This document shows, piece by piece, positions 1,137 to 18,739 of a DNA stretch of 25,598 nucleotides. Below the pieces are notes generated by a model. The model did not search any database, was not told where the DNA came from, and was given only the letters and a program-made list of their open reading frames with translations. Both the position numbers and the translations under genes were made by a program. Source of the stretch: a virus (lineage: Duplodnaviria > Heunggongvirae > Uroviricota > Caudoviricetes); the IMG/VR virus record IMGVR_UViG_2778261153_000008, one strand, 5' to 3'. How positions within the stretch are numbered: position 1 is the stretch's first letter; every line of letters begins with the position of its first letter.

Positions 1137-2813
1137 CTAAGCAACATGCAGTTCATCGTTGGCGGAAGTTGCTGCTTTGCGCTCTTGCTCAATCGCCAGT
1201 GACTCTCTATATTCTTTCGCTTCCGCAAACATTGTCCATTGTGCGTTGATGTTCATATCTTCAATAACAGACTTAATTTCTTTAATATTTACGTTGAAAA
1301 ACTCTTTTCGTGAGTTAATTTTATTGACCTGTTTTTCGTTGAAGACTTTATGCAGATGATTTTCTAATGATGGTGCATCATCACTATAAATCATCGCATG
1401 AACATCGAACGAAAAAGGAACACTAGCATCACCGAGTTCACGAACACGATCAAGTGGTTCAAGGCGGCGTGTCATTCCAATTTTATATACATCTTCGCCA
1501 AATGAGCCAATATTACTAATTATATAAACGTGGCCTGATCTAGTTTGTTGAGCCATAGAAATAGCTCGTTGGTTTTTAGCTTCAGCTTCTTCATATTTTA
1601 ACTGTAGTTCAGCTATTTTTTGCTCTAAAGCTAAGCGTTGTTCTTCATTTGCAAGCATAAGCTCTTTTGTTGCTTTATTTATAGCTTGCTGAATAGCTTT
1701 CTCTTCTTTTTCAGCTTCTTTTATCGCTTTTTCATACTCCCTACGAGCTCTTTCCTCTTCACGAAGTTGTTCTTTAATCCTTCTTTGCTCTTCTTTTTCT
1801 TCGAGCATAATTTCATTAACTGCAACTCCCCATTTTAGCTCGTTGAGTCGAGCTTGAAGATAGATGTCACTTATTTTTGCGGACCTAAAGGCAGAACCAT
1901 TGTAATTTACAAGTTGAAACGCATCTTTTATCTCTTGGGAAAGTTTTCCAAAATTGTTGTGTTTGACTTTTGATAAAATACTGTCAACTCTTCCATTGAA
2001 GGCATCTAAAACAAAGTTGATAGCAGTATTACGCCTGTTTTGTTCGACATAATCACACGAAGCAGCTTTATTAGTTTTTATTAATGATTTTGTTAACTCC
2101 CTGGCTTTTTGTAATTCCTTACCTGCATCTGTAAACTCATAATTTTCTGCCAATTCATCGAGAACGCTACGGTTAGGGATGATCCATTCATCACCATAAC
2201 CTTCAATTTTATTTTTCATTGATTTGGCAACTGCTTCATATTTTTCTGCAAACTCTTTAGCTTCATATGCTGAACCAGCAATCTCTTTTGCTCTTTCTTC
2301 TGCATCGGAAATAATTTTCACTGCATTGTCATTAGCATTTGAGATCAGCTCATTTGCTTTACTATTGGCATTATCAAGACGTTCTTTAGCTTTCAGGCGT
2401 GCATCGCGAGCGTCTTTAGTAATTGCTATAGCTTCGCTATTAGCGTTGCTTATTTTTATCTGAGCTTGATAATTTGCTTCGTTTACTGTCTTAGCAGCCT
2501 TTATTTGGGCTTCTTCTATTTTTTGCCTGGCTATTGAGTCTGCATTTTTTATCTTATTCTCTGCTTCCATCACTGCGCTGTGCAATTCTACGTATTGCCA
2601 TAATGGCGCAGCTCGTCCTTCAAGCTCTGATAGATCTCGTACAGTCTGTGCTAATTCTTCTTGATTTTCTTTCAGTTGGTTGGAAAGGGCTATGTTGTTA
2701 GCTGTCAAGGTATTTATAGCCGCTTTATGTTTTTTGCTTTGCTTAAATAATATTACAGCTAGAATGGGGGCGAGAAATGCTAATAAGAATATAACGATGG
2801 AAAATGAATTCAT
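1137..2813 (-). CDS. Membrane-anchored coiled-coil protein with C-terminal T5orf172/MUG113 (GIY-YIG-like) nuclease domain; DUF4041-like architecture; cargo gene
   Basis: 558 aa. N-terminal hydrophobic helix (FSIVIFLLAFLAPILAVILF), long K/E/A-rich low-complexity middle region predicted coiled coil, C-terminal block GHVYIISNIGSFGEDVYKIGMTRRLEPLDRVRELGDASVPFSF...EFF matching the recalled T5orf172 consensus. Strongly AT-rich versus phage backbone. Start 20 nt downstream of cI stop, SD AAGGA; co-oriented with cI and int. Confidence 0.75.
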   Translation of the reverse strand: MNSFSIVIFLLAFLAPILAVILFKQSKKHKAAINTLTANNIALSNQLKENQEELAQTVRDLSELEGRAAPLWQYVELHSAVMEAENKIKNADSIARQKIEEAQIKAAKTVNEANYQAQIKISNANSEAIAITKDARDARLKAKERLDNANSKANELISNANDNAVKIISDAEERAKEIAGSAYEAKEFAEKYEAVAKSMKNKIEGYGDEWIIPNRSVLDELAENYEFTDAGKELQKARELTKSLIKTNKAASCDYVEQNRRNTAINFVLDAFNGRVDSILSKVKHNNFGKLSQEIKDAFQLVNYNGSAFRSAKISDIYLQARLNELKWGVAVNEIMLEEKEEQRRIKEQLREEERARREYEKAIKEAEKEEKAIQQAINKATKELMLANEEQRLALEQKIAELQLKYEEAEAKNQRAISMAQQTRSGHVYIISNIGSFGEDVYKIGMTRRLEPLDRVRELGDASVPFSFDVHAMIYSDDAPSLENHLHKVFNEKQVNKINSRKEFFNVNIKEIKSVIEDMNINAQWTMFAEAKEYRESLAIEQERKAATSANDELHVA

Positions 2814-5103: not shown

Positions 5104-5330
5104 TGGCTGATGCAATGGATCTCGTACAGCAGCGCGTTGAAGAAGAACGCCAGCGCCATATCCGTGCTGCCCGTGCCAAAACACCGGGCGTGTCACGCGT
5201 ACTTTGCATTGAATGTGAAGCGCCAATTCCGCCAGCACGACGCCGCGCCATTCCGGGAGTGCAGCTTTGCATTACCTGTCAGGAAATCGCAGAACTGAAA
5301 GGCAAACATTACAACGGAGGTGCTGTATGA
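5103..5330 (+). CDS. TraR/DksA-family C4 zinc-finger protein
   Basis: 75 aa with CxxC-(17)-CxxC pattern (CIECEAP...CITCQE), typical of small phage TraR/DksA-like zinc fingers; translationally coupled to flanking genes. Confidence 0.7.
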   Translation: MADAMDLVQQRVEEERQRHIRAARAKTPGVSRVLCIECEAPIPPARRRAIPGVQLCITCQEIAELKGKHYNGGAV

Positions 5331-6175
5331 GCACCATCTTGAAATGGGCGGGAAATAAAACGGCCATTATGGCAGAACTGAAAAAATACCTTCCTGCTGG
5401 CCCGCGACTGGTTGAACCTTTCGCGGGTTCCTGTGCAGTGATGATGGAGACGGATTACCCCAGCTATCTTGTTGCGGATATTAATCCTGATTTAATCAAC
5501 CTCTATAAAAAGGTTGCCGCTGATTGTGAATCGTTTATATCTCGCGCCAGAGTTTTATTTGAGAACGCAAACAGGGAGATGGCTTATTACAACATAAGGC
5601 AGGAGTTTAATTACTCAACTGAAATTACTGATTTCATGAAAGCAGTATATTTCCTGTATCTCAATCGTCACGGTTACCGTGGTTTATGTCGCTATAACAA
5701 GAGCGGGCATTTCAACATTCCCTACGGTAATTATAAAAATCCGTATTTCCCTGAAAAAGAAATTCGTGCATTTGCAGAAAAAGCCCAGCGGGCAACATTT
5801 ATCTGCGCCAGCTTCGATGAAACGCTGGCAATGTTGCACGCGGGGGATGTTGTGTATTGCGATCCGCCTTATGACGGTACGTTTTCCGGTTATCACACTG
5901 ACGGCTTCACTGAAGATGACCAGTATCACCTGGCATCCGTTCTTGAACATCGGTCATCAGAAGGACATCCGGTCATTGTTTCTAACAGTGACACATCCCT
6001 GATCCGCTCGCTGTATCGCAATTTCACTCACCACTACATCAAGGCAAAACGCAGCATTGGCGTGTCAGCTGGCGAGAGTAAATCTGCAACAGAAATCATT
6101 GCCACCAAATCAGCTGGGTGGTTTGGTGTCGATTTTGCCAGCGGCTCTGACCGTACCGTTGAGGTACGCGCATGA
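5327..6175 (+). CDS. dam: DNA adenine methyltransferase (Dam-like, N6-adenine MTase)
   Basis: ATG 5327 (overlaps preceding stop as ATGA); N-terminal AdoMet motif (KWAGNK ... EPFAGSCAV) and catalytic DPPY motif ([11 protein letters not shown]). Confidence 0.85.
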
Positions 6176-7182
6176 ATGCTATCGATCCGCGTTGCTTTGC
6201 CTCAGGCACCATTAACGTCATCACTACTTCTGGTGGCAAAGATAGTCTCGCTCAATGGCTAAGAGCCATTGAAAACGATGTTCCGCATATTTCTGTATTT
6301 GCCGATACGGGTCATGAACATCCACAGACAATAGAATATCTGGATTATCTGGAATCAAAGCTGGGCAAGATTATTCGCGTCAAAGCGGATTTCACACGCC
6401 AGATAGAAGGGAAACGTAAATTCATTGCGGAAAAGTGGACCATTTCTCTCGTTGAGGAATGTGGTATGTCGACAGATGAGGCTGAGGAACGTATTTACCG
6501 GGCACTGGAAATCCTTAAACCAACCGGCGTTCCGTTTCTTGATTTGTGCATGTGGAAAGGTCGCTTCCCTTCAACAAAAGCTCGTTTCTGCACTTTTGAA
6601 CTGAAACATGAACCAATACGTACACAGGTAATCGATCCAGCTCTGGATGAATACGATGAGGTAATCAGTTGGCAAGGAGTCCGGGGGCAGGAATCACCGG
6701 AACGTGCATTGTTGCCTGAGTGGGAGGACGATGCAGACAATACTCTGGGGCTGCATGTTTATCGTCCGATCCTTAATTGGCTGCATGAGGATGTGTTTGC
6801 TATTGCCAAACGTCATGGCATTAAGCCTAACCCCCTTTATATGCAGGGATGCAGTCGTGTCGGTTGTATGCCATGCATTCATGCTCGCAAGTCAGAACTT
6901 GGAGAGATTTTCCAACGCTGGCCAGAAGAAATCCGCCGAGTGGCTGAGTGGGAAAGACTGGTTGCGGAATGTTCAAGACGTGGCAATTCAACGTTCTTTC
7001 CATCCACGCATGATCCGCGCCGTGCTGAAAAACGGATCGAAGTCATAACTGTTGATGCTTATGGCATTGAAACTTATCGGGACTGGGCCTTAACGACTCG
7101 GGGCGGTATGCAGTTTGACCTGCTGGCAGGCATGAATGATAAAGCGGTGTGCAGCAGTGTATATGCAGGAGTCTGTGAGTGA
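6172..7182 (+). CDS. PP-loop ATP pyrophosphatase, phosphoadenosine-phosphosulfate (PAPS) reductase-like family protein
   Basis: 336 aa; PP-loop motif SGGKDS near N-terminus; C-terminal cysteine cluster (CSRVGCMPC); start overlaps dam stop (ATGA), stop overlaps gene A start. Confidence 0.65.
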
Positions 7183-9620
7183 CAGAGATCAGCACAGGCC
7201 GTCTTGCCGATCCATTTGTCAGTGTAACTTCCGGTAGCATTGAGAATTCTGCCGGGGGTTATTCGTGGAATTTACCTAAGAAAGCCATTAACCCTTATCT
7301 GGACCCGGCGGAAGTTGCGCCGGTTTCTGCGCTTTCAAACCTGATCACTCTGTACGCTACCGATAACGAGCAGGAACAACTGCGCCGCGAGGCACTGAGT
7401 GATCAGGTCTGGGAGCGTTATTTCTTTAATGAATCCCGTGATCCTGTCCAGCGCGAAATGGAGCAGGATAAGCTCATTAGCCGGGCAAAGTTGGCGCATG
7501 AGCAGCAGCGTTTTAACCCGGACATGGTCATTCTGGCAGACGTCAGCGCCCAGCCCTCCCATATCAGCAAGCCGCTGATGCAACGTATTGAATACTTCAG
7601 CAGCCTGGGCAGGCCAAAGGCTTATTCCCGCTATTTACGTGAGACGATTAAGCCATGTCTGGAACGACTGGAGCATGTACGCGACAGCCAGCTATCTGCA
7701 TCTTTTCGTTTTATGGCAAGCCATGTAGGGCTGGACGACCTGCTGATTCTGCCTGAAATGAGTCAGGATCAGGTGAAACGCCTGTCTACCCTTGTCGCTG
7801 CGCATATGAGCATGTGCCTTGATGCAGCTTGTGGTGATTTGTATGCCACCGATGACGTTAAGCCAGAAGAAATCCGCAAGACATGGGAAAAGGTGGCAGC
7901 GGAAACCCTGCGTCTGGATGTCATCCCGCCTGCGTTTGAGCAACTCCGCCGGAAAAGAAACCGCCGTAAACCCGTGCCCTATGAACTCATTCCGGGTTCG
8001 CTGGCGCGTATGTTGTGCGCCGACTGGTGGTACCGGAAATTATGGAAGATGCGTTGCGAATGGCGGGAAGAGCAGTTGCGTGCTGTCTGCCTGGTCAGCA
8101 AAAAAGCATCTCCCTATGTCAGCTATGAAGCCGTGATGCATAAACGTGAGCAGCGCCGTAAGTCGCTGGAGTTTTTTCGTTCTCATGAACTGGTGAACGA
8201 AGACGGCGACACGCTGGACATGGAGGATGTGGTAAACGCCAGCAGCAGCAACCCTGCGCATCGCCGCAATGAGATGATGGCCTGTGTTAAAGGCCTGGAG
8301 CTTATCGCGGAAATGCGTGGTGACTGCGCCGTTTTCTACACCATTACCTGTCCGTCACGTTTCCATTCCACGCTCAATAACGGCAGACCAAACCCAACCT
8401 GGACAAATGCGACGGTAAGACAAAGCAGCGATTATCTGGTCGGCATGTTTGCTGCATTTCGTAAGGCGATGCACAAAGCCGGGTTGCGCTGGTATGGCGT
8501 GCGGGTGGCTGAGCCGCATCATGACGGTACGGTTCACTGGCACCTGTTGTGTTTCATGCGCAAAAAAGACCGCCGTGCCATTACTGCATTGTTGCGTAAG
8601 TTTGCCATCCGTGAAGACCGCGAGGAACTGGGTAATAACACTGGTCCACGCTTTAAATCTGAGCTGATAAACCCGCGCAAAGGAACACCGACAAGCTACA
8701 TCGCGAAATACATTAGTAAGAACATTGACGGGCGTGGTCTGGCTGGCGAGATCAGCAAGGAAACGGGTAAATCCCTGCGTGATAACGCTGAATACGTTAA
8801 TGCCTGGGCGTCTCTGCATCGTGTTCAGCAATTCCGCTTCTTTGGTATTCCGGGGCGTCAGGCTTACCGTGAACTGCGATTGCTGGCTGGTCAGGCGGCA
8901 AGGCAACAGGGCGACAAAAAAGCAGGTGCGCCGGTACTGGATAACCCGCGCCTTGATGCCATCCTGGCTGCTGCTGATGCTGGTTGTTTTGCCACTTACA
9001 TCATGAAGCAGGGTGGTGTACTGGTTCCCCGCAAATATCACCTCATCAGAACTGCTTATGAAATTAACGAAGAGCCGACCGCCTATGGCGATCACGGCAT
9101 TCGTATTTATGGCATCTGGTCACCCATTGCAGAGGGCAAGATCTGCACTCATGCAGTGAAGTGGAAAATGGTTCGTAAAGCCGTTGACGTTCAGGAGGCG
9201 GTAGCCGACCAGGGCGCTTGCGCCCCTTGGACTCGTGGCAATAACTGTCCCCTTGCTGAAAATTTGAACCAACAGGAGAAAGATAAATCAGCTGATGGGG
9301 ACCCCAGAACGGACATTACCCGCATGGATGACAAGGTGTTGCACGATTACCTGCACAGTATGAACAAAAAGGAGCGCCGGGAACTGGCTGCAAGGTTACG
9401 TCTGGTGAAACCGAAACGGCGTAGAGACTACAAACAGCGAATTACAGACCATCAACGACAGCATCTCGTCTATGAACTGAAATCCAGAGGATTTGATGGC
9501 AGCGAGAAAGAGGTCGATTTACTCCTTCGCGGCGGCAGTATTCCGTCAGGAGCAGGCCTGCGTATCTTCTATCGGAACCAGCGTTTGCAGGAAGATGATA
9601 AGTGGCGGAACCTGTATTAA
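7179..9620 (+). CDS. A: Replication initiation protein (P2 gpA-like rolling-circle endonuclease)
   Basis: 813 aa, GTG start with SD AGGAG (7167-7171); HUH-type motif ([12 protein letters not shown]) and downstream tyrosine motif ([10 protein letters not shown]); large early gene in the position of P2 gene A. Confidence 0.85.
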
Positions 9621-10260: not shown

Positions 10261-10293
10261 AGGCGATGTCAATCAGATATCGCCTTGTTTTTT
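10261..10293 (+). terminator. Intrinsic terminator/attenuator-like hairpin
   Basis: A-GGCGAT (10261-10267) pairs with ATCGCC-T (10279-10285), 11-nt loop, followed by TTGTTTTTTG; lies after the DinI-like gene and 27 nt before the lipoprotein start. Confidence 0.45.
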
Positions 10294-10319
10294 GTCAAGA
10301 AAAGAATAATAGGCTAAAA

Positions 10320-10997
10320 ATGAAAATTAATAATGTAGCGTTACCAATATCTCTTGCTGTAATCCTAACTGGTTGCGTGCCACATGCTTCTAACCGAAAT
10401 ATCACTGCTATTGAAGTGGTGAAGCCTGCTATTGGGCAAAGTGCTACCGCCTACATGGGCGATCCCATTATCACATCTGCTACTGGATTTAAAACGGACG
10501 TACTAGAACTTGGTGCGGCTAATGGTGCATTGTCTTCTATCGCTGCTGGTACATATTGCAGTGAGGGGAATGGAATTTACCGCAATTATCATAACCCTCA
10601 AGCTGTTGCGTTAAAAAATCTCTATGGGCAAATCGGTAACTATGTTGATTATGTTAGTTACGATGCTGCAAAAAATGAGATATCACCGCCAAATGGTACT
10701 TCTTATACTGCATCAGAAATTTCTATCAAACGTGTTCCTGATGGGCTGTGTCGAGTTAGTAACTCATTGGTTAAGACTATCGAATACAATGGAAATGCAG
10801 GCGGTGTAATGAAGTTCACCTATCGTGAATTTGCAAACGATATGGCTCGTGCAGCATTTACAACAGATTTTTCTGTAGATTCTAAGGGAAGTGACGTTAT
10901 CGCTTACAAAGGTGCCAAGTTCAAAGTGAACAAGGCTGATAACTCGTCTATTTCTTATACAATTATTTCTGGCTTTGACAAGGCTGTCACGTTCTAG
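10320..10997 (+). CDS. Lipoprotein, function unknown (cargo/moron)
   Basis: Product begins MKINNVALPISLAVILTGC: basic N-terminus, hydrophobic core, lipobox LTGC. Remainder Gly/Ser/Asn/Tyr-rich beta-type sequence. AT-rich relative to backbone. The ORF-track start at 10266 would add 18 non-signal residues and overlaps the hairpin. Confidence 0.7.
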   Translation: MKINNVALPISLAVILTGCVPHASNRNITAIEVVKPAIGQSATAYMGDPIITSATGFKTDVLELGAANGALSSIAAGTYCSEGNGIYRNYHNPQAVALKNLYGQIGNYVDYVSYDAAKNEISPPNGTSYTASEISIKRVPDGLCRVSNSLVKTIEYNGNAGGVMKFTYREFANDMARAAFTTDFSVDSKGSDVIAYKGAKFKVNKADNSSISYTIISGFDKAVTF

Positions 10998-11100
10998 GTT
11001 TCACGCTTACTTAGTATGTTACGATTTTGCACATTCTGCATAAACGCGCATGTCTATGCTGCATGAGATCGCATGATCGTTTGAGGATCTTTTGTGTTAA

Positions 11101-11126
11101 GGCCCGCCAGTTCTGGCGGGCTTTTG
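11101..11126 (+). terminator. Rho-independent terminator
   Basis: GCCCGCCA-gttc-TGGCGGGC stem-loop followed by TTTT; 104 bp downstream of lipoprotein stop, immediately left of putative cos. Confidence 0.7.
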
Positions 11127-11170
11127 CGTAGATCATGCAGGTGCATGAAAACCACTACATAAAGCGGGCA

Positions 11171-11189
11171 GGCGTGGCGGGGATACGAG
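11171..11189. other. Putative cohesive end site (cos) of the P2/186-like genome
   Basis: GGCGTGGCGGGGATACGAG; the first 13 nt match my recollection of the 19-nt cohesive ends of 186 (GGCGTGGCGGGGAAAGCAT) and P2 (GGCGAGGCGGGGAAAGCAC). Lies between the genome-right-end genes and the portal/terminase genes as expected. Confidence 0.5.
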
Positions 11190-11483
11190 CGCGCATTTAT
11201 ATAGAGTTAGAGAAATTTCTCTATGCTGCATGTCATAGTCATATTTGCTGATGCAAATGAAGGTTACAACTAAGGAGAACAACATAATTACCGTAAATAT
11301 AATTTACAATCGTTATTGTTTTGTAGGGTTATGAGATTGACGCATTATATTGAGATCAAGTTCAAAATTATATGTCAATTCATCAATTTTGACGTTTCTT
11401 TCGTTAAATAAATCGCATATCCTATCGTTATGATAAATCGGTCATGATATTTTTTAATTTAACGGAAGTAATCGGAGATTCTA

Positions 11484-13202
11484 ATGCATCCTGTTTTAAA
11501 CAGATATATTCAAGATTTAGCGAGTACACTTGATATAGCAGAAGAGCAAGATAAGTTATTTGAATATTTTTGCAATTTTGTTGTTACATCCAAAAATTAT
11601 CTTGGCCGATTTAATCCTGTCGACATTACGACTCAAGAAGATGATGCATCAATTGATGGCTTGGCGGTTCTAATAGATAGTGAGATCATACTTACCCAAG
11701 AGGACGCTATTGCTGCTTTCGAAAGTCACAAATCGTCATTGCCTGTAGAACTTTTGGTTATTCAAGCTAAATCAGGAGAAACCTTCCGGAAAGATAAAAT
11801 AGCTAATTTTAATTTGGGGTTGCAGGATTTATTCAGTTTGGACCCGAAACTACCTAATGGAAAGTACAATAAAGAAATTATAAAAATATTAAGTGTTATC
11901 ATCGATAATTTGAGAAAAGTCAAGAATAAACTTCCTGATATAAAGGTTTATTTTTGCACAAGCGGTGTCTATTCAAAAGAAAGAGAAATAGAAGCTTCTT
12001 TTAAGATTATTGAAGAAACTTGTAAAGGGGCAGATCTGTTTGGTGAAGTTGAGGTTAGCCCATTAGGTCGTAGCGAACTAATGAAATTGTGGCGCTCAAT
12101 AACCGAAAAAAATGAGGCTACTTTAGAGTTCATAAATTTCATGGGCATCAATGAAATGCCTGGAATTCCTCAAGCATATATTACAACAATAAAAGCTAAG
12201 GAGTTTATTGAAAAAGTTGCGATGGATGAAGATCGCAAAATTCGAGAGGAGGTATTTGATGAAAATGTACGAGCATTTTTAGGTGAAGACAATCCTGTTA
12301 ATAAGGATATTACTAAAACCTTGCAATCTGAAAAATCGAATCAATTCGCTGTGCTAAACAATGGCGTGACCATCATTGCTCCTGAGGTAACCCTCACCCC
12401 AAGTAAAAAAACTATACACATAGCTAATTATCAGATCATTAACGGTTGCCAAACTACCAATACACTATTCAATAACTTTGGAATATTAACGGATGCGACT
12501 GAACTCGTTGTTAAGTTTATACAATCTAGCGAGGTTGATGTCGCAATTGACATTGTAACTGCTACCAATAATCAATCCAAAGTGGAGAGTTCTAGCTTTT
12601 ATGCGTTGAGAGAAAAGTCTAGGATGATACATAAATTTTTTGAAATACAACGGGATGTTGAAGGCAGGGAACACCTTTATTTTGAAAGAAGAGAAGGTGA
12701 GTATCGTGGTAAATCTATCAAAACTACAAAAATATATGACATTGTTGAATTGGCAAGGTGTTTCTTATCTGTATTCAAACAGAGGCCACACAATGCCGCT
12801 ATGTATGTGAAAAAAGTATTAAATGAAAGTAAGGATATATGTTATTTAGATACTGATAACGAATATGCATATTACACAGCAGCTTATATTTGTTATAAAT
12901 ACAGCACGTTGATTAATGGTCGTAAAGCTAATGCTAAGAAATATAATAAGCTACGTTGGCATATTGCTATGCTTTATCCTTGGGTTGTGAGCAAAAGTAT
13001 GGATGTTCCTGCGCCCAATTCAGGAAAGATAACTCCTTTTTGTAATAATATCATGAAAACATTGACAACTGATGAATACGTGGAGAATTTCAAAGAATGT
13101 CAAAAAATAATTGATAAACTTCCATTCCCTACAGATGACCAGATCAAACGAGGAAAATACACCAGCGATCTGAGAACGATGGCAGCAGAACATTTTAAAT
13201 AA
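11484..13202 (+). CDS. Hypothetical 572-aa protein; candidate single-gene anti-phage defence/abortive-infection protein (family unverified, possibly AIPR-like)
   Basis: Long uninterrupted ORF with SD GGAG 6 nt before ATG; very AT-rich compared with flanking packaging genes; own AT-rich upstream region; followed by strong hairpin terminator. No Walker A motif; conserved-looking block ANYQIINGCQTTNT; located between cos and portal gene. Confidence 0.6.
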   Translation: MHPVLNRYIQDLASTLDIAEEQDKLFEYFCNFVVTSKNYLGRFNPVDITTQEDDASIDGLAVLIDSEIILTQEDAIAAFESHKSSLPVELLVIQAKSGETFRKDKIANFNLGLQDLFSLDPKLPNGKYNKEIIKILSVIIDNLRKVKNKLPDIKVYFCTSGVYSKEREIEASFKIIEETCKGADLFGEVEVSPLGRSELMKLWRSITEKNEATLEFINFMGINEMPGIPQAYITTIKAKEFIEKVAMDEDRKIREEVFDENVRAFLGEDNPVNKDITKTLQSEKSNQFAVLNNGVTIIAPEVTLTPSKKTIHIANYQIINGCQTTNTLFNNFGILTDATELVVKFIQSSEVDVAIDIVTATNNQSKVESSSFYALREKSRMIHKFFEIQRDVEGREHLYFERREGEYRGKSIKTTKIYDIVELARCFLSVFKQRPHNAAMYVKKVLNESKDICYLDTDNEYAYYTAAYICYKYSTLINGRKANAKKYNKLRWHIAMLYPWVVSKSMDVPAPNSGKITPFCNNIMKTLTTDEYVENFKECQKIIDKLPFPTDDQIKRGKYTSDLRTMAAEHFK

Positions 13203-13210
13203 TATATACA

Positions 13211-13231
13211 GCCTCTCAAGGTTTGAGAGGC
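13211..13231. terminator. Bidirectional rho-independent terminator between convergent genes
   Basis: GCCTCTCAA-ggt-TTGAGAGGC perfect 9-bp stem, T/A-rich flanks on both sides (ATTGTTATTT on plus; TGTATATATT on minus); lies between the 572-aa gene stop and the Q stop. Confidence 0.8.
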
Positions 13232-13239
13232 ATTGTTAT

Positions 13240-14271
13240 TTAATCTAATATGTACTCGCTAAATTTTATTACTGATTCTCCTACAAATTCATTTAATCCT
13301 TTCACTCTTTCTTTAAGTGGGATGAGTTCGTTACGTACAAATACTTTACTGGCCTTCTCAATATCACCAAAACCGCCAACATTTTGCGGGATGATACCCA
13401 TGAGTTGTGGCGGCACGCGGTGCGCAGCCATCATGTCGTCACGGCTCACGTTTTTGATATTCAGAAACTCATCCTTCGCTGCGACTTCTGACAACGGGAT
13501 AATCTGAAGCCCGTCCTTTTTGCCGTTCGGCGAGTACATAAACAGGTTACGGAAGTTGCCTGGTCCTTTGGCGCTTTTCATTGCGTTGCGGAGGTTGTTT
13601 ACATCCTCCTGGTTCTGTGCGGCATCGGTCATGTACATGATGAAGCCTGCATGACTACCGTTAATGTAATACTTGCGGCGGAACAGCGTGGCGGATTCGT
13701 TGAGCAGGGCTGACGGAATGGCAGAAAGATAACCGGGCAGGCCGTAGATCTCCTGGTTGATGTCCGGTTCCATCAGATGAAAGATGCTGCCTTTCGTGAA
13801 CTGATACGGCTGGGTTGTCATACCGTATTGCACAAACCAGTAGGTATCTAGGTCTAACCCGCGTCGGGTGTATTTTGCCAGCGCAGGCTCAAGGGCGATA
13901 ACTTCACCGAATCGGTTCGTGCGTTTCTCCAGGTAGGCGTTACCAAATACCAGATAGTCCTGCACAAAACGCGAAAAAGCCTGCTGGCTGAGCAGCGGGT
14001 GAGGGATGTAGGTACTGGTCAGAATATTGCATTTCACCGCAATCGGTGAGCTGTGATGCACGGCGGCGCGAAAGGTGCGCGCCAGCCCGTCAAAACTCAC
14101 TGGCGGCTCATACCATCGATCTGTCTGTACGCATTCCACATAGTCCAGCAGTTCACGGCGGTCCAGAACAGGAACGGGATCGCCGAAGCTGAATGCTTCG
14201 GCTGAAGTCTGGCTTTTATGCTGGATCTGATTCATCGCAGCTACGCGGTTTTTTTTACTCTTTCCCATCAA
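13240..14271 (-). CDS. Q: Portal protein (P2 gpQ-like)
   Basis: 343 aa (P2 Q is about 344 aa); leftward gene immediately preceding the large terminase subunit, as in P2; 4-nt overlap with P. Confidence 0.85.
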   Translation of the reverse strand: MMGKSKKNRVAAMNQIQHKSQTSAEAFSFGDPVPVLDRRELLDYVECVQTDRWYEPPVSFDGLARTFRAAVHHSSPIAVKCNILTSTYIPHPLLSQQAFSRFVQDYLVFGNAYLEKRTNRFGEVIALEPALAKYTRRGLDLDTYWFVQYGMTTQPYQFTKGSIFHLMEPDINQEIYGLPGYLSAIPSALLNESATLFRRKYYINGSHAGFIMYMTDAAQNQEDVNNLRNAMKSAKGPGNFRNLFMYSPNGKKDGLQIIPLSEVAAKDEFLNIKNVSRDDMMAAHRVPPQLMGIIPQNVGGFGDIEKASKVFVRNELIPLKERVKGLNEFVGESVIKFSEYILD

Positions 14272-16034
14272 AAAATCTCCACAATATTGCTGGTATTGGC
14301 AGACTCGCCCTGCAGCGGTTCGTTAAACAGTGCGTGCATTGTTGCCCATGCCAGATCCGCATGGCTGGCTTCTTCGCTGCGGCTGGCTTCATAGGTCGGA
14401 CGGTTGCCGCTGGCGGTGGTAGCGCGACGGATTGCCATAAATGACTGCGCTATGTCGGTGTGTCCGGCGTCAAACTCCAGACGACGGTGACTGATAATGT
14501 CGTAAGCCTTGAGTACCAGGGCGTTTTTAACGTTGGGGTTGTAGACAAACTCCCGGACGGCAGGAAAGAACGCTTTCACGTTCTCGTAAACCCCGTGACC
14601 AACGCCGGTTGAGTCGATACCGATATAAGTCACGTTGTACTGTTCGGTAAGTTTTTTGATGGCGTCAGCCTGGGCGCAGAAATCCATCCCGCGCCACTGG
14701 TGACGCTCAAGAATGCGGAACTTACCGCCCGGCACGGCTGGCGGCGCCACCACCACGCATCCGGCGCTGTCGCCGTTCTGCGTACCTTTCGCCGGGTCAT
14801 ATCCGATCCACACTTCGCGCCAGCCAAACGGGCGCAGGGCCAGTGCATGAAAGTCGGTCCAGACTTCCCAACTGTCCACCATGCACGCCTGCAGCTCGCT
14901 GAGCGGGAACACGGACGCGAGATCGTCCACGAACTCACACATCAGCAGGTTCTGGTATTCGTCCGGGCTGTACTCCATGCGCAACTGGTCGAGGTCGAAC
15001 AGGTTACAGCCGCCGCGCACCGCATCTTCCACAGTGACTATCTGGCGGTACTGCCCGTCTGCGCACAGCAGGCCGGGGGCCAGATTGCTGTGGGACAGGT
15101 CGATGTCCACCTTATCGGCTTTGTTGCGCCCTCGGTTGAACAGCGCACCGGACCAGAACGGATAAGCACTGTGTGTCAGGCTGGATGGCGTGGAAAAATA
15201 GGTTTGTCGCCATTTCTTGTGAATAGCCATACCGGAAGCCACTTTGCGCAGCTCCTGGAATTTCGGTATCCAGAAATATTCATCCAGATACAGGTTGCCG
15301 TGGTAACTCTGGGCCGTGCGGGCATTGGTGCCGAGGAAGTACAGCGTGGCCCCGTTAGGAAGCACCATCGGATCGCCTTTCAGCTCCACCTCCACTTCTT
15401 TGGCGAAGTCGATGATGTACTGCTTAAAGACGTGGGCCTGAGCCTTGCTGGCGGAAAGGAAAATCTGGTTACGCCCGGTTAGCAGGGCGTCAATCAGGGC
15501 TTCACGGGCAAAATAGAAGGTCGCGCCGATCTGGCGTGACTTCAGCAGGTTGCGGATGCGGTTGGTTTTTCCGGCTTCCCACCAGTGGCGCTGGTAGTTG
15601 AACATGGAGGAATGGAAGATTTCTTCCAGCTTCTCAATCTGTTCATCGGTGAAAACGTTCTTTTCCGGCTGACGGCGCGGGCCTTTGTTGCGGTTGGCGA
15701 CGTTAGGGTTTAAGTCGGCTTCGTTGCCGCCATTGTTAAACTTGCCGATCCGCGCATGGCGCTCCGACTGGCGCGCCAGCAGGTCAATCTCTTTGAAATC
15801 TTTCCCTTCTTTGTGCTCCTTCATAATGAGCTGGCAGTAGCGTGCGGCGGTGGTGAGCTGCATCTGATCCAGCGGCCCATAGTCACCCCACTTGTCGCGT
15901 TTTTTCCAGCTGTGAACGGTTGCAACTTTCTCGCCCAGCATTTCAGCAATGCGGGCTACGCGGTATCCCTGAAAGTACAGCAGCATGGCCTGCCGACGGG
16001 GATCGAGATCTGCGGGTGTCAGTGTGGTGTTCAT
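14268..16034 (-). CDS. P: Terminase large (ATPase) subunit (P2 gpP-like)
   Basis: 588 aa (P2 P about 590 aa); divergent from the O-N-M-L capsid operon exactly as in P2; recalled similarity. Confidence 0.85.
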   Translation of the reverse strand: MNTTLTPADLDPRRQAMLLYFQGYRVARIAEMLGEKVATVHSWKKRDKWGDYGPLDQMQLTTAARYCQLIMKEHKEGKDFKEIDLLARQSERHARIGKFNNGGNEADLNPNVANRNKGPRRQPEKNVFTDEQIEKLEEIFHSSMFNYQRHWWEAGKTNRIRNLLKSRQIGATFYFAREALIDALLTGRNQIFLSASKAQAHVFKQYIIDFAKEVEVELKGDPMVLPNGATLYFLGTNARTAQSYHGNLYLDEYFWIPKFQELRKVASGMAIHKKWRQTYFSTPSSLTHSAYPFWSGALFNRGRNKADKVDIDLSHSNLAPGLLCADGQYRQIVTVEDAVRGGCNLFDLDQLRMEYSPDEYQNLLMCEFVDDLASVFPLSELQACMVDSWEVWTDFHALALRPFGWREVWIGYDPAKGTQNGDSAGCVVVAPPAVPGGKFRILERHQWRGMDFCAQADAIKKLTEQYNVTYIGIDSTGVGHGVYENVKAFFPAVREFVYNPNVKNALVLKAYDIISHRRLEFDAGHTDIAQSFMAIRRATTASGNRPTYEASRSEEASHADLAWATMHALFNEPLQGESANTSNIVEIF

Positions 16035-18088: not shown

Positions 18089-18739
18089 ATGAGCCTGAGT
18101 CCCGCACGGCAGCATCGCCTGCGCGTTCAGGCTGAACAGGCCGCCCGTGAGGGCGGCAGCGTTCGCCACGCGTCGGGCTATGACCTGATGCTGCTGCAAC
18201 TGGCGGAAGACCGCCGCCGTCTCAAGGGCGTTCAGTCCACGGTCAAAAAAGCGGAAATCAAGGTGGAACTGCTGCCGAAATACGCCGCCTGGGCAGAGGG
18301 GGTCCTGGCTGGCGGAGGCGCGCAACAGGATGACGTGCTGATGTACGTGATGCTGTGGCGCATTGATGCCGGAGATTATGCCGGGGCGCTGGAGATCGGG
18401 CGTCACGCCCTGCGTCATGGCTGGGTGATGCCGTTGGGTAACCGCAACGTGCAGACCGTGCTGGCAGAGGAAATGGCAGACGCGGCGCAGAGCGCAATGC
18501 TTGCCGCCACCGGCTTTGATGCTGATCTGTTGCTGCAGACGCTGGAGCTGACAGACGGTCTGGATATGCCGGACCAGTCACGGGCACGTCTGCATAAAGC
18601 GATTGGCGCTGTCCTGAGTGAAAGCAATCCGGCTTCCGCCCTTAATCATCTCAACCATGCGTTACAGCTCGATCCCCGCTGTGGCGTGAAAAAAGACAAA
18701 CAGCAGCTGGAGCGCAGACTGCGCAATGACAGCCGCTGA
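18089..18739 (+). CDS. M: Terminase small (endonuclease) subunit (P2 gpM-like)
   Basis: 216 aa immediately after N; position and size consistent with P2 gpM. Confidence 0.8.
   Translation: MSLSPARQHRLRVQAEQAAREGGSVRHASGYDLMLLQLAEDRRRLKGVQSTVKKAEIKVELLPKYAAWAEGVLAGGGAQQDDVLMYVMLWRIDAGDYAGALEIGRHALRHGWVMPLGNRNVQTVLAEEMADAAQSAMLAATGFDADLLLQTLELTDGLDMPDQSRARLHKAIGAVLSESNPASALNHLNHALQLDPRCGVKKDKQQLERRLRNDSR

Follow-up and report, generated by a model that had tools for sequence, protein, structure and literature searches.

A probable Felsduovirus-type cos region beside an AbiU cargo cassette in a P2-like prophage

Phage P2 packages its DNA from monomeric circles. The cos site of phage lambda consists of the nicking site cosN and of cosB, which contains repeated R sites bound by the small terminase gpNu1. 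Binding of gpNu1 to lambda cos is described in PMC9611059. For the P2 family a cos core of 55 bp is attributed to Ziermann and Calendar (1990) by later papers (PMC5694545, PMC3931495); this core is the only cos signal mentioned in the P2 papers and reviews that were searched. P4 has only cos in common with P2 and depends on the P2 terminase (PMC9122126), and the lack of any other homology between the two is likewise reported in PMC9594776. According to the latter source, cosmid transduction is 10^3-10^4-fold better with longer flanks around the 55-bp core. The variable slot adjoining cos between gpA and gpQ is the P2 defence hotspot (Rousset et al. 2022, PMC9122126), and retrons were located between cos and the tW terminator by Dodd and Egan (1996), as cited in a later paper. 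The genome announcement of Salmonella phage SEN8 gives the 19-mer discussed below as the cos of that phage (PMC5427200). Near-identical overhangs are reported for Smp131 (GGCGTGGCGGGGAGACGAG) and for SEN4 and SEN5 (ggcgaggcgggggaacgag).

The DNA analysed here, called the window, is a stretch of 25,598 nucleotides from the IMG/VR virus record IMGVR_UViG_2778261153_000008. Judged by its sequence, the prophage in the window is a P2-family member of the Fels-2 (Felsduovirus) type. The genes on its left side are arranged in the order integrase, PD-Lambda-1 defence gene, CI repressor, Dam-type methylase, PAPS-reductase-like gene, gpA, DinI and an orf97-like gene. The cos region, an AbiU/AIPR gene, Q and P (both on the minus strand) and, further to the right, the capsid genes and M follow. 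Over the structural half, identity to Fels-2-like phages of Klebsiella and E. coli is about 96%, and the gpM homologue shares 99.5% identity with that of the same phages and about 49% with P2 gpM. A Pfam search with the orf97-like gene gave no match; STM2726 of Fels-2 is found at the homologous position and Orf97 of 186 at the equivalent one. The placement of cos between the gpA region and Q, together with the presence of the cognate P and M, is the layout of the P2 family. A reading of the locus as a defective relic was set aside, as Q, P, the gpO-like gene, the major capsid-like gene and M are all full-length open reading frames; the joint occurrence of cos and the AbiU cassette in many assemblies (295 index blocks) also counts against a relic. 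The positions of the features are listed in Table 1.

Table 1. Features of the cos locus and its surroundings in the window (offsets in brackets count from the presumed top-strand nick)
Feature	Position	Strand	Basis or remark
gpA	7179-9620		Matching Pfam family
orf97-like gene, 243 aa, last gene before cos on the gpA side	10266-10997	+	ORF list
Distal YGCAT array: CGCAT 11047 (-124), TGCAT 11060 (-111), CGCAT 11070 (-101)	11047-11074	+	Candidate gpM boxes
Left 13-mer TCTATGCTGCATG	11053-11065	+	Overlaps the -111 box; within the conserved cos block
G+C-rich palindrome/hairpin AAGGCCCGCCA-GTTC-TGGCGGGCTTT, followed by a T-run	11099-11124	+	RNA fold; likely terminator of the orf97-like gene
Proximal inverted pair CATGCA-GG-TGCATG (ATGCA -36, TGCAT -29)	11134-11147		
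55-bp cos core (-29 to +26)	11142-11196	+	Alignment; equivalent to the P2/P4 core
Left nick-site heptamer GCGGGCA (consensus GCGSGCR)	11164-11170	+	Directly 5' of the presumed top-strand nick
Putative 19-nt 5' cohesive end GGCGTGGCGGGGATACGAG	11171-11189	+	Identity to SEN8 cos; positional homology to P2/186 cos
Right nick-site heptamer, bottom strand ATGCGCG	11190-11196	-	5/7 of consensus GCGCGCR
Cargo cassette in the cos-Q hotspot: 289-bp leader and AbiU/AIPR gene (11484-13202)	11195-13239	+	Start approximate (~11195)
Right 13-mer TCTATGCTGCATG	11220-11232	+	Cassette-borne; outside the conserved cos
Portal gene, gpQ homologue	13240-14271	-	Pfam Phage_portal
Large terminase, gpP homologue; presumed cos nuclease/ATPase	14268-16034	-	Pfam Terminase_5, Terminase_6N, Terminase_6C
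Small terminase, gpM homologue; presumed reader of the YGCAT boxes	18089-18739	+	Pfam Phage_term_smal (3.2e-40)

The putative cohesive end and the cos core

The 19-mer, in which a first-pass annotation had recognised a putative cos site, was rightly called. It occupies the place in which P2, 186 and P4 carry their cohesive ends (between the gpA, DinI and orf97 genes and Q), lies in the same core architecture, and has exactly the sequence of the feature 'putative cos site' in SEN8 (NC_047753, bases 1-19), a cos that was assigned by annotation. The right end of the SEN8 genome aligns to positions 11048-11170 of the window and stops exactly at the presumed nick. As is characteristic of the P2 family, the 19-nt end is G+C-rich and begins with GGCG(A/T)GGCGGGG. 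The exact 19-mer is present in at least 120 IMG/VR contigs. The site is an ordinary, already published cos of Fels-2/SEN8-type phages, and its 19-mer is a common variant and not a new one.

The P2 and 186 ends on which the first-pass annotation relied agree with the GenBank records, in which P2 cosL is GGCGAGGCGGGGAAAGCAC and 186 cos is GGCGTGGCGGGGAAAGCAT. The reported match over the first 13 nt is complete for 186 (13/13) and lacks one position for P2 (12/13); over all 19 nt the agreement is 15/19 with 186 and 14/19 with P2. The 3' half differs from both phages, as had been noticed: overhang positions 14-19 read TACGAG in the window versus AAGCAC in P2 and AAGCAT in 186. The altered 3' half of the overhang certainly changes which ends anneal; it might also go with a distinct packaging specificity, as the first-pass annotation proposed, but the comparison speaks neither for nor against this.

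The arrangement TGCAT..AAAACC..AAGCGGGCR, 19-mer, YGCGCGC, extending from -29 to +26, is found in the window, where the core is identical to that of P2 at 40/55 positions, to that of 186 at 42/55 and to that of P4 at 41/55; the last two positions deviate, with AT in place of GC. The left heptamer is kept in 10/10 phages compared and has a bottom-strand mirror at +26 to +20, and in all ten the symmetric heptamers are 19 nt apart. This spacing supports, without proving, an overhang of 19 nt in the window. From the comparison, the top strand is presumed to be nicked at 11170/11171 and the bottom strand at 11189/11190. The binding of gpM, the exact nicks and the overhang length of 19 nt are what we infer from the observed sequence identity, positional homology and conservation patterns.

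The comparison of flanks is based on 125 occurrences of the 19-mer. Conservation sets in at about -125, continues across the overhang and ends at +24/+26, and its left edge coincides with the distal YGCAT array. To the right of the 19-mer the constraint ends after 5-7 bp, and the flanks then split into 103 unrelated classes (104 right-flank classes in the word-sharing test described below). Nearly all of these begin with CGCGCG(C) and diverge completely afterwards. The Q side is hypervariable in the cos type of the window, whereas the Q-side flank is conserved in P2-type phages. SEN8, Fels-2, RE-2010 and Felsduovirus-like prophages of Klebsiella and E. coli share with the window the identical 19-mer, the same gene neighbourhood and a cargo slot of variable content between cos and Q. 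Between the window and this group the block from 11000 to about 11194 (approximately -171 to +24) is 97-99% identical, and the only differences lie in the cargo and in the last two nucleotides of the core (CGCGCAT in the window versus CGCGCGC).

YGCAT boxes on the gpA side

The first-pass annotation had reported at least five GCATG pentamers near cos. The clustering itself is borne out, with six sites in 185 bp, five on the plus strand (11048, 11061, 11071, 11143 and 11228) and one on the minus strand (11134); two of the coordinates given, 11126 and 11133, were wrong, and the site at 11048 had been missed. Overall, the window has fewer GCATG sites than shuffled sequences would predict (49 versus about 101 expected), and 0.31 sites are expected in 185 bp (Poisson P ~1e-6).

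When the cos regions were compared, the pentamers resolved into a set of YGCAT boxes which, together with the nick-site heptamers, was derived from this comparison and not from the literature. In the window, CGCAT, TGCAT, CGCAT and TGCAT stand precisely at -124, -111, -101 and -29. YGCAT occurs at exactly these four offsets in 186, P4, SEN8 and a Yersinia phage, and in P2 with -123 in place of -124; in Erwinia phage ENT90 the boxes are displaced by 1 nt, and two out of three distal boxes are found in pro483 and in a Ralstonia phage. The TGCAT at -29, which opens the 55-bp core, occurs in all ten of the diverse P2-family cos regions compared and in 99% of the flanks, and the ATGCA at -36 in 6/10 of the cos regions compared. 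The sequence between the boxes diverges among the compared phages. In Aeromonas phage LPM4 the -29 box is kept and the distal boxes are replaced by three copies of AGGATC, an exchange that would fit a specificity module.

Among 84 distinct Fels-2-type flanks the boxes are present in 90-99% (distal boxes 90-94%). Conservation is high throughout the cos block in this set, and for this reason Fels-2-type sequences alone single out no boxes. In 99 distinct P2-type flanks, P4-like ones included, the frequencies at the four ungapped offsets are 42%, 62%, 71% and 99%. No offset to the right of the 19-mer showed enrichment of YGCAT in the 84 Fels-2-type and 99 P2-type distinct flanks. Since P4 shares only cos with P2, phased motifs which are common to both and lie outside the 55-bp core point to a packaging signal, and the effect of flank length on cosmid transduction fits a packaging role of the boxes. 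By their sequence pattern, the YGCAT boxes appear to be the best candidates for recognition by the small terminase, on the gpA side only. The earlier suggestion that repeated motifs around cos serve as small-terminase sites thus stands as an inference, given the offsets conserved across genera and in P4, for one side of cos and not for both.

It is very unlikely that the boxes instead serve the transcription or regulation of the genes on either side, for instance as a terminator or promoter of orf97 or as operators of phage regulators. The block does contain a strong hairpin with a T-run, the probable terminator of the orf97-like gene, and weak promoter-like matches on the minus strand. However, the distance of the boxes from the nick is fixed while the flanking genes differ entirely (old/tin in P2, psu in P4, orf97 in 186 and Fels-2, and others), P4 has no other homology with P2, and the promoter scan remained within the expectation from shuffled sequences.

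The hairpin, located between the distal and the proximal boxes, is very stable (RNA folding, -23.6 kcal/mol, z = -5.0) and probably terminates the orf97-like transcript; a simple terminator scan did not call it. A CCAG..CTGG palindrome is found at the equivalent place in 186, SEN8, ENT90 and LPM4, a CCAG..CCGG variant in pro483 and the Yersinia phage, and a G+C-rich stem-loop at this position in P4. Of these phages and P2, P2 alone is without such a structure.

The stretch 11047-11196 is most probably a P2-family cos of Felsduovirus type, on which gpM and gpP act by way of a one-sided YGCAT array and of nicks flanked by heptamers. The heptamers and YGCAT boxes that flank the 19-mer are shared with P2, 186 and P4. 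By analogy with P2 and P4, gpM would recognise the phased boxes on the gpA side, namely the distal ones at -124, -111 and -101 and the inverted pair at -36 and -29. Its binding would position gpP to nick the two strands at a distance of 19 nt, in both cases directly 3' of a symmetric GCGSGCR heptamer, and these nicks would produce the 5' overhang GGCGTGGCGGGGATACGAG. The mature left end would start with the 19-mer and run directly into the AbiU cargo; the YGCAT array is located on the mature right end. The Q side, with its 5-7 constrained base pairs, would provide a freely exchangeable cargo slot that corresponds to the P2 defence hotspot.

In outline this organisation resembles lambda cos, with a staggered nick site, partial two-fold symmetry and a one-sided array of repeats for presumed small-terminase binding. 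There is, however, no sequence relationship, and the overhang has 19 nt here versus 12 nt in lambda. The analogy with cosB would be a functional and incomplete one.

The cargo cassette and the 13-bp repeat

The AbiU/AIPR gene of the cassette encodes a product of 572 aa (PADLOC AbiU, 9.3e-107; Pfam AIPR, 4.6e-40) and is thus a variable gene of a known defence family between cos and Q, a junction at which 103 other right flanks occur. To the right, sequence homologous to the structural module does not reappear before about 13325, within the 3' end of Q, and the right end of the cassette at 13239 is approximate. Fels-2 carries an AIPR homologue with 30% identity in the same slot. The hypervariable gpA-gpQ slot adjoining cos, here with an abortive-infection gene, shows no essential difference from the P2 defence hotspot; what is added is the sharp left boundary of the slot, at +24 to +26, for this cos type. 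In P2 the cargo genes old and tin are on the gpA side, unlike the cargo in the window, which is on the Q side. Since the constraint on the Q side is limited to 5-7 bp, cargo would be exchangeable right up to the nick site.

A search of 50,697 phage records with the DNA of the AbiU cassette found no match. The matches among 5,426 complete E. coli genomes covered the cos block, with none continuing into the cassette, and an exact 31-mer from the cassette leader gave no match in the GTDB representative genomes. Relatives of the AbiU protein (at most 65% identity; Serratia, Flavobacteria and others) are encoded in contexts unrelated to P2, with no 13-mer upstream and no cos nearby; one of these loci (L272) shows a single isolated weak match to a degenerate 12-nt cos pattern. 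The loci that encode the identical AbiU protein are all P2-like prophages.

Two perfect copies of TCTATGCTGCATG are present at the positions that had been noted, and the window contains no further match, even with two mismatches allowed. Chance would produce an exact direct repeat of 13 nt within 200 bp 0.076 times per window, and 2.6e-4 times in the particular 200 bp concerned. The left copy contains the consensus form of the -111 box and is exact in only 17/98 distinct left flanks; it is no more than that stretch of the cos block in which this box lies. The right copy starts 31 bp beyond the overhang and 25 bp inside the cassette. It is found in one of the 104 right-flank classes (1/107 distinct right flanks), and together with the same leader it is invariant in 8/8 loci encoding the identical AbiU protein. 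In two loci with a variant cos block (L131 and L136) the left element is TCTATGCCGCATG or CCTATACTGCATG and the right 13-mer is unchanged. These patterns indicate that the right copy is leader sequence of the AbiU cassette and not a cos element: it travels with the cassette and persists where the left copy differs, and the flanking repeat is therefore no element of cos.

One reading, after the first-pass annotation, takes both copies for small-terminase sites that bracket cos, so that both would aid packaging. The exact 13/13 repeat is indeed locally unlikely and an outlier among the 104 right flanks, and it includes the consensus -111 box. The other 103/104 classes, however, have the same 19-mer and terminase type and lack the right copy, which moreover stays constant while the left one varies; P2, 186 and P4 have no such box on the Q side, and the right side is not enriched in YGCAT or GCATG. 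As a general feature of cos the bracketing arrangement is largely refuted, and for this locus it is most improbable. Terminase-box-like motifs in right flanks generally were also considered and rejected, with GCATG in 28/107, TGCAT in 30/107 and CTGCATG in 3/107 of the flanks (300 bp), the chance level for GCATG being estimated at roughly 27/107.

The match of the right 13-mer to the box is either a coincidence or a footprint of microhomology. In the word-sharing test the longest word that a right flank shares with its own cos block is 6-10 nt in the other flanks and 13 nt in the AbiU cassette. For a coincidence, a probability of roughly 1e-3 per cassette was estimated, or about 0.1 over the 104 classes. 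The exact 13-nt repeat is an outlier which the best explanation treats as incidental, and this counts against that explanation.

If the pair were a footprint of recombination, the AbiU cassette or the cos block would have been captured or exchanged by microhomology at the 13-mer. The length of 13 nt is an outlier in keeping with this, the left copy (-118 to -106) lies near the start of conservation at about -125, and the hotspot is thought to swap cargo by recombination near cos (PMC9122126). The right copy, however, lies 25 bp inside the cassette, away from the junction at about +25, the same cassette is paired with different left copies, and no donor context was found among the GTDB representatives or the AbiU relatives, which are without cos or 13-mer. 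The similarity also stops at the 13-mer, and a remnant of a degenerate second cos block was rejected as the origin of the right copy because the local alignment ends at 13 bp. A recombination footprint is on balance unlikely. A promoter role could not be assigned to the 13-mer either, as the promoter scan found no sigma-70-like site on the plus strand of the cassette leader.

With a published Fels-2/SEN8-type cos in the well-described P2 defence hotspot, the locus carries little weight as a discovery. Its by-product is a precise anatomy of the P2-family packaging signal, with one-sided YGCAT offsets, two heptamers and 5-7 constrained base pairs on the cargo side. This anatomy helps to account for the swapping of defence cargo directly beside cos, and it may aid the design of P2/P4 cosmids and transducing particles, in which flank length shifts efficiency 10^3-10^4-fold (PMC9594776).

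GATC sites and Dam-type methylase genes

The pac site of phage P1 is under methylation control. By analogy, recognition or cleavage of Felsduovirus-type cos might be tuned by adenine methylation, a proposal that is regarded as decidedly unlikely. A Dam-type methylase is encoded in 32/35 loci with this cos type versus 0/43 P2-type loci, a contrast between what are effectively two lineages, which phylogenetic inertia alone could explain. In the window the methylase gene occupies 5267-6175. GATC sites are frequent in the block type of the window, whereas P2-type cos blocks are mostly without them. In the window four GATC sites are interleaved with the YGCAT boxes (P ~1e-3), and those at -96 and -85, positions 11075 and 11086, are conserved in 89% of flanks.

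Cargo placement and slot boundaries

Comparison of P2-type loci (L144-L223) with Fels-2-type loci (L009-L088) indicates that the side of cos holding cargo depends on the cos type. Offsets are counted from the inferred top-strand nick at 11170/11171. P2-type loci have a conserved Q-side flank and a gpA-side flank that is variable beyond about -125, and P2 itself carries the cargo genes old and tin on the gpA side. Fels-2-type loci show hypervariability on the Q side, starting at +26. The right boundary of this cos-Q slot seems to reach into the C-terminal codons of the portal gene Q, because nucleotide homology with the structural module of related phages restarts only at ~13325, about 85 nt within the 3' end of that gene (window ~13240-13325). 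Coordinates of features in the window and in two comparison loci are given in the table.

Features of the window and of two comparison loci
Feature	Location	Strand	Remarks
AIPR/AbiU-type gene	window 11484-13202		cos-Q slot
AIPR/AbiU-type gene	L001 3366-5063		cos-Q slot
AIPR/AbiU-type gene	L002 3412-5076		cos-Q slot
PD-Lambda-1 match	window 1137-2813	-	558 aa; PADLOC 4.7e-120
Dam-type methylase gene	window 5267-6175
GATC sites	window 11067, 11075, 11086, 11131		cos block
G+C-rich palindrome	window 11099-11124		centre near -58, between distal and proximal boxes
Nick heptamer, left	window 11164-11170
Nick heptamer, right	window 11190-11196

The cos-Q slots of the window prophage, Fels-2 (L001) and RE-2010 (L002) are all occupied by AIPR/AbiU-type genes, but these genes differ and have diverged deeply: the protein of the window shares 30% identity with that of Fels-2 and, in the core only, 28% with that of RE-2010. 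The same defence family has thus been placed in the slot repeatedly. A second defence cargo of the window prophage, a PD-Lambda-1 gene, is flanked by the integrase and CI repressor genes; its product contains T5orf172/MUG113 and DUF4041 domains.

GATC sites and the Dam-type methylase

The cos block of the window contains four GATC sites in 131 bp, with 0.46 expected. Those at -96 and -85 are kept in 89% of Fels-2-type flanks, whereas 80 of 99 P2-type flanks are without any GATC. Of 35 Fels-2-type loci, 32 have a Dam homologue within 7 kb of cos, as against none of 43 P2-type loci. The GATC cluster and the Dam homologue could be a sign of methylation-sensitive packaging, or the contrast between the cos types could be lineage inertia.

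Palindrome, distal boxes and nick heptamers

The palindrome has the form CCAG-NN-CTGG in the window, 186, SEN8, ENT90 and LPM4; pro483 and the Yersinia phage show the variant CCAG-NN-CCGG. At this position P4 carries a G+C-rich stem-loop instead, and P2 lacks the palindrome. A T-run follows the palindrome in only some of the phages compared, so its function at cos may go beyond ending transcription.

In the P2-like Aeromonas phage vB_AsaM_LPM4 (L140) the TGCAT box at -29 and the nick heptamers are retained, while three AGGATC repeats (-128 to -85 relative to its own cos) replace the distal YGCAT boxes, which are candidate small-terminase (gpM) motifs. LPM4 may be a naturally occurring case in which the recognition specificity of terminase was swapped.

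The cos regions of the window, P2, 186, P4, SEN8, ENT90, LPM4, Ralstonia YO139_2, YenM_201.16 and pro483 were compared around the nicks. In all of them each inferred nick is directly preceded by a symmetric heptamer, GCGSGCR, with a spacing of 19 nt. The Yersinia phage has GCGCGCA at both nicks. Owing to the cassette junction, the right heptamer of the window has the weaker form ATGCGCG.
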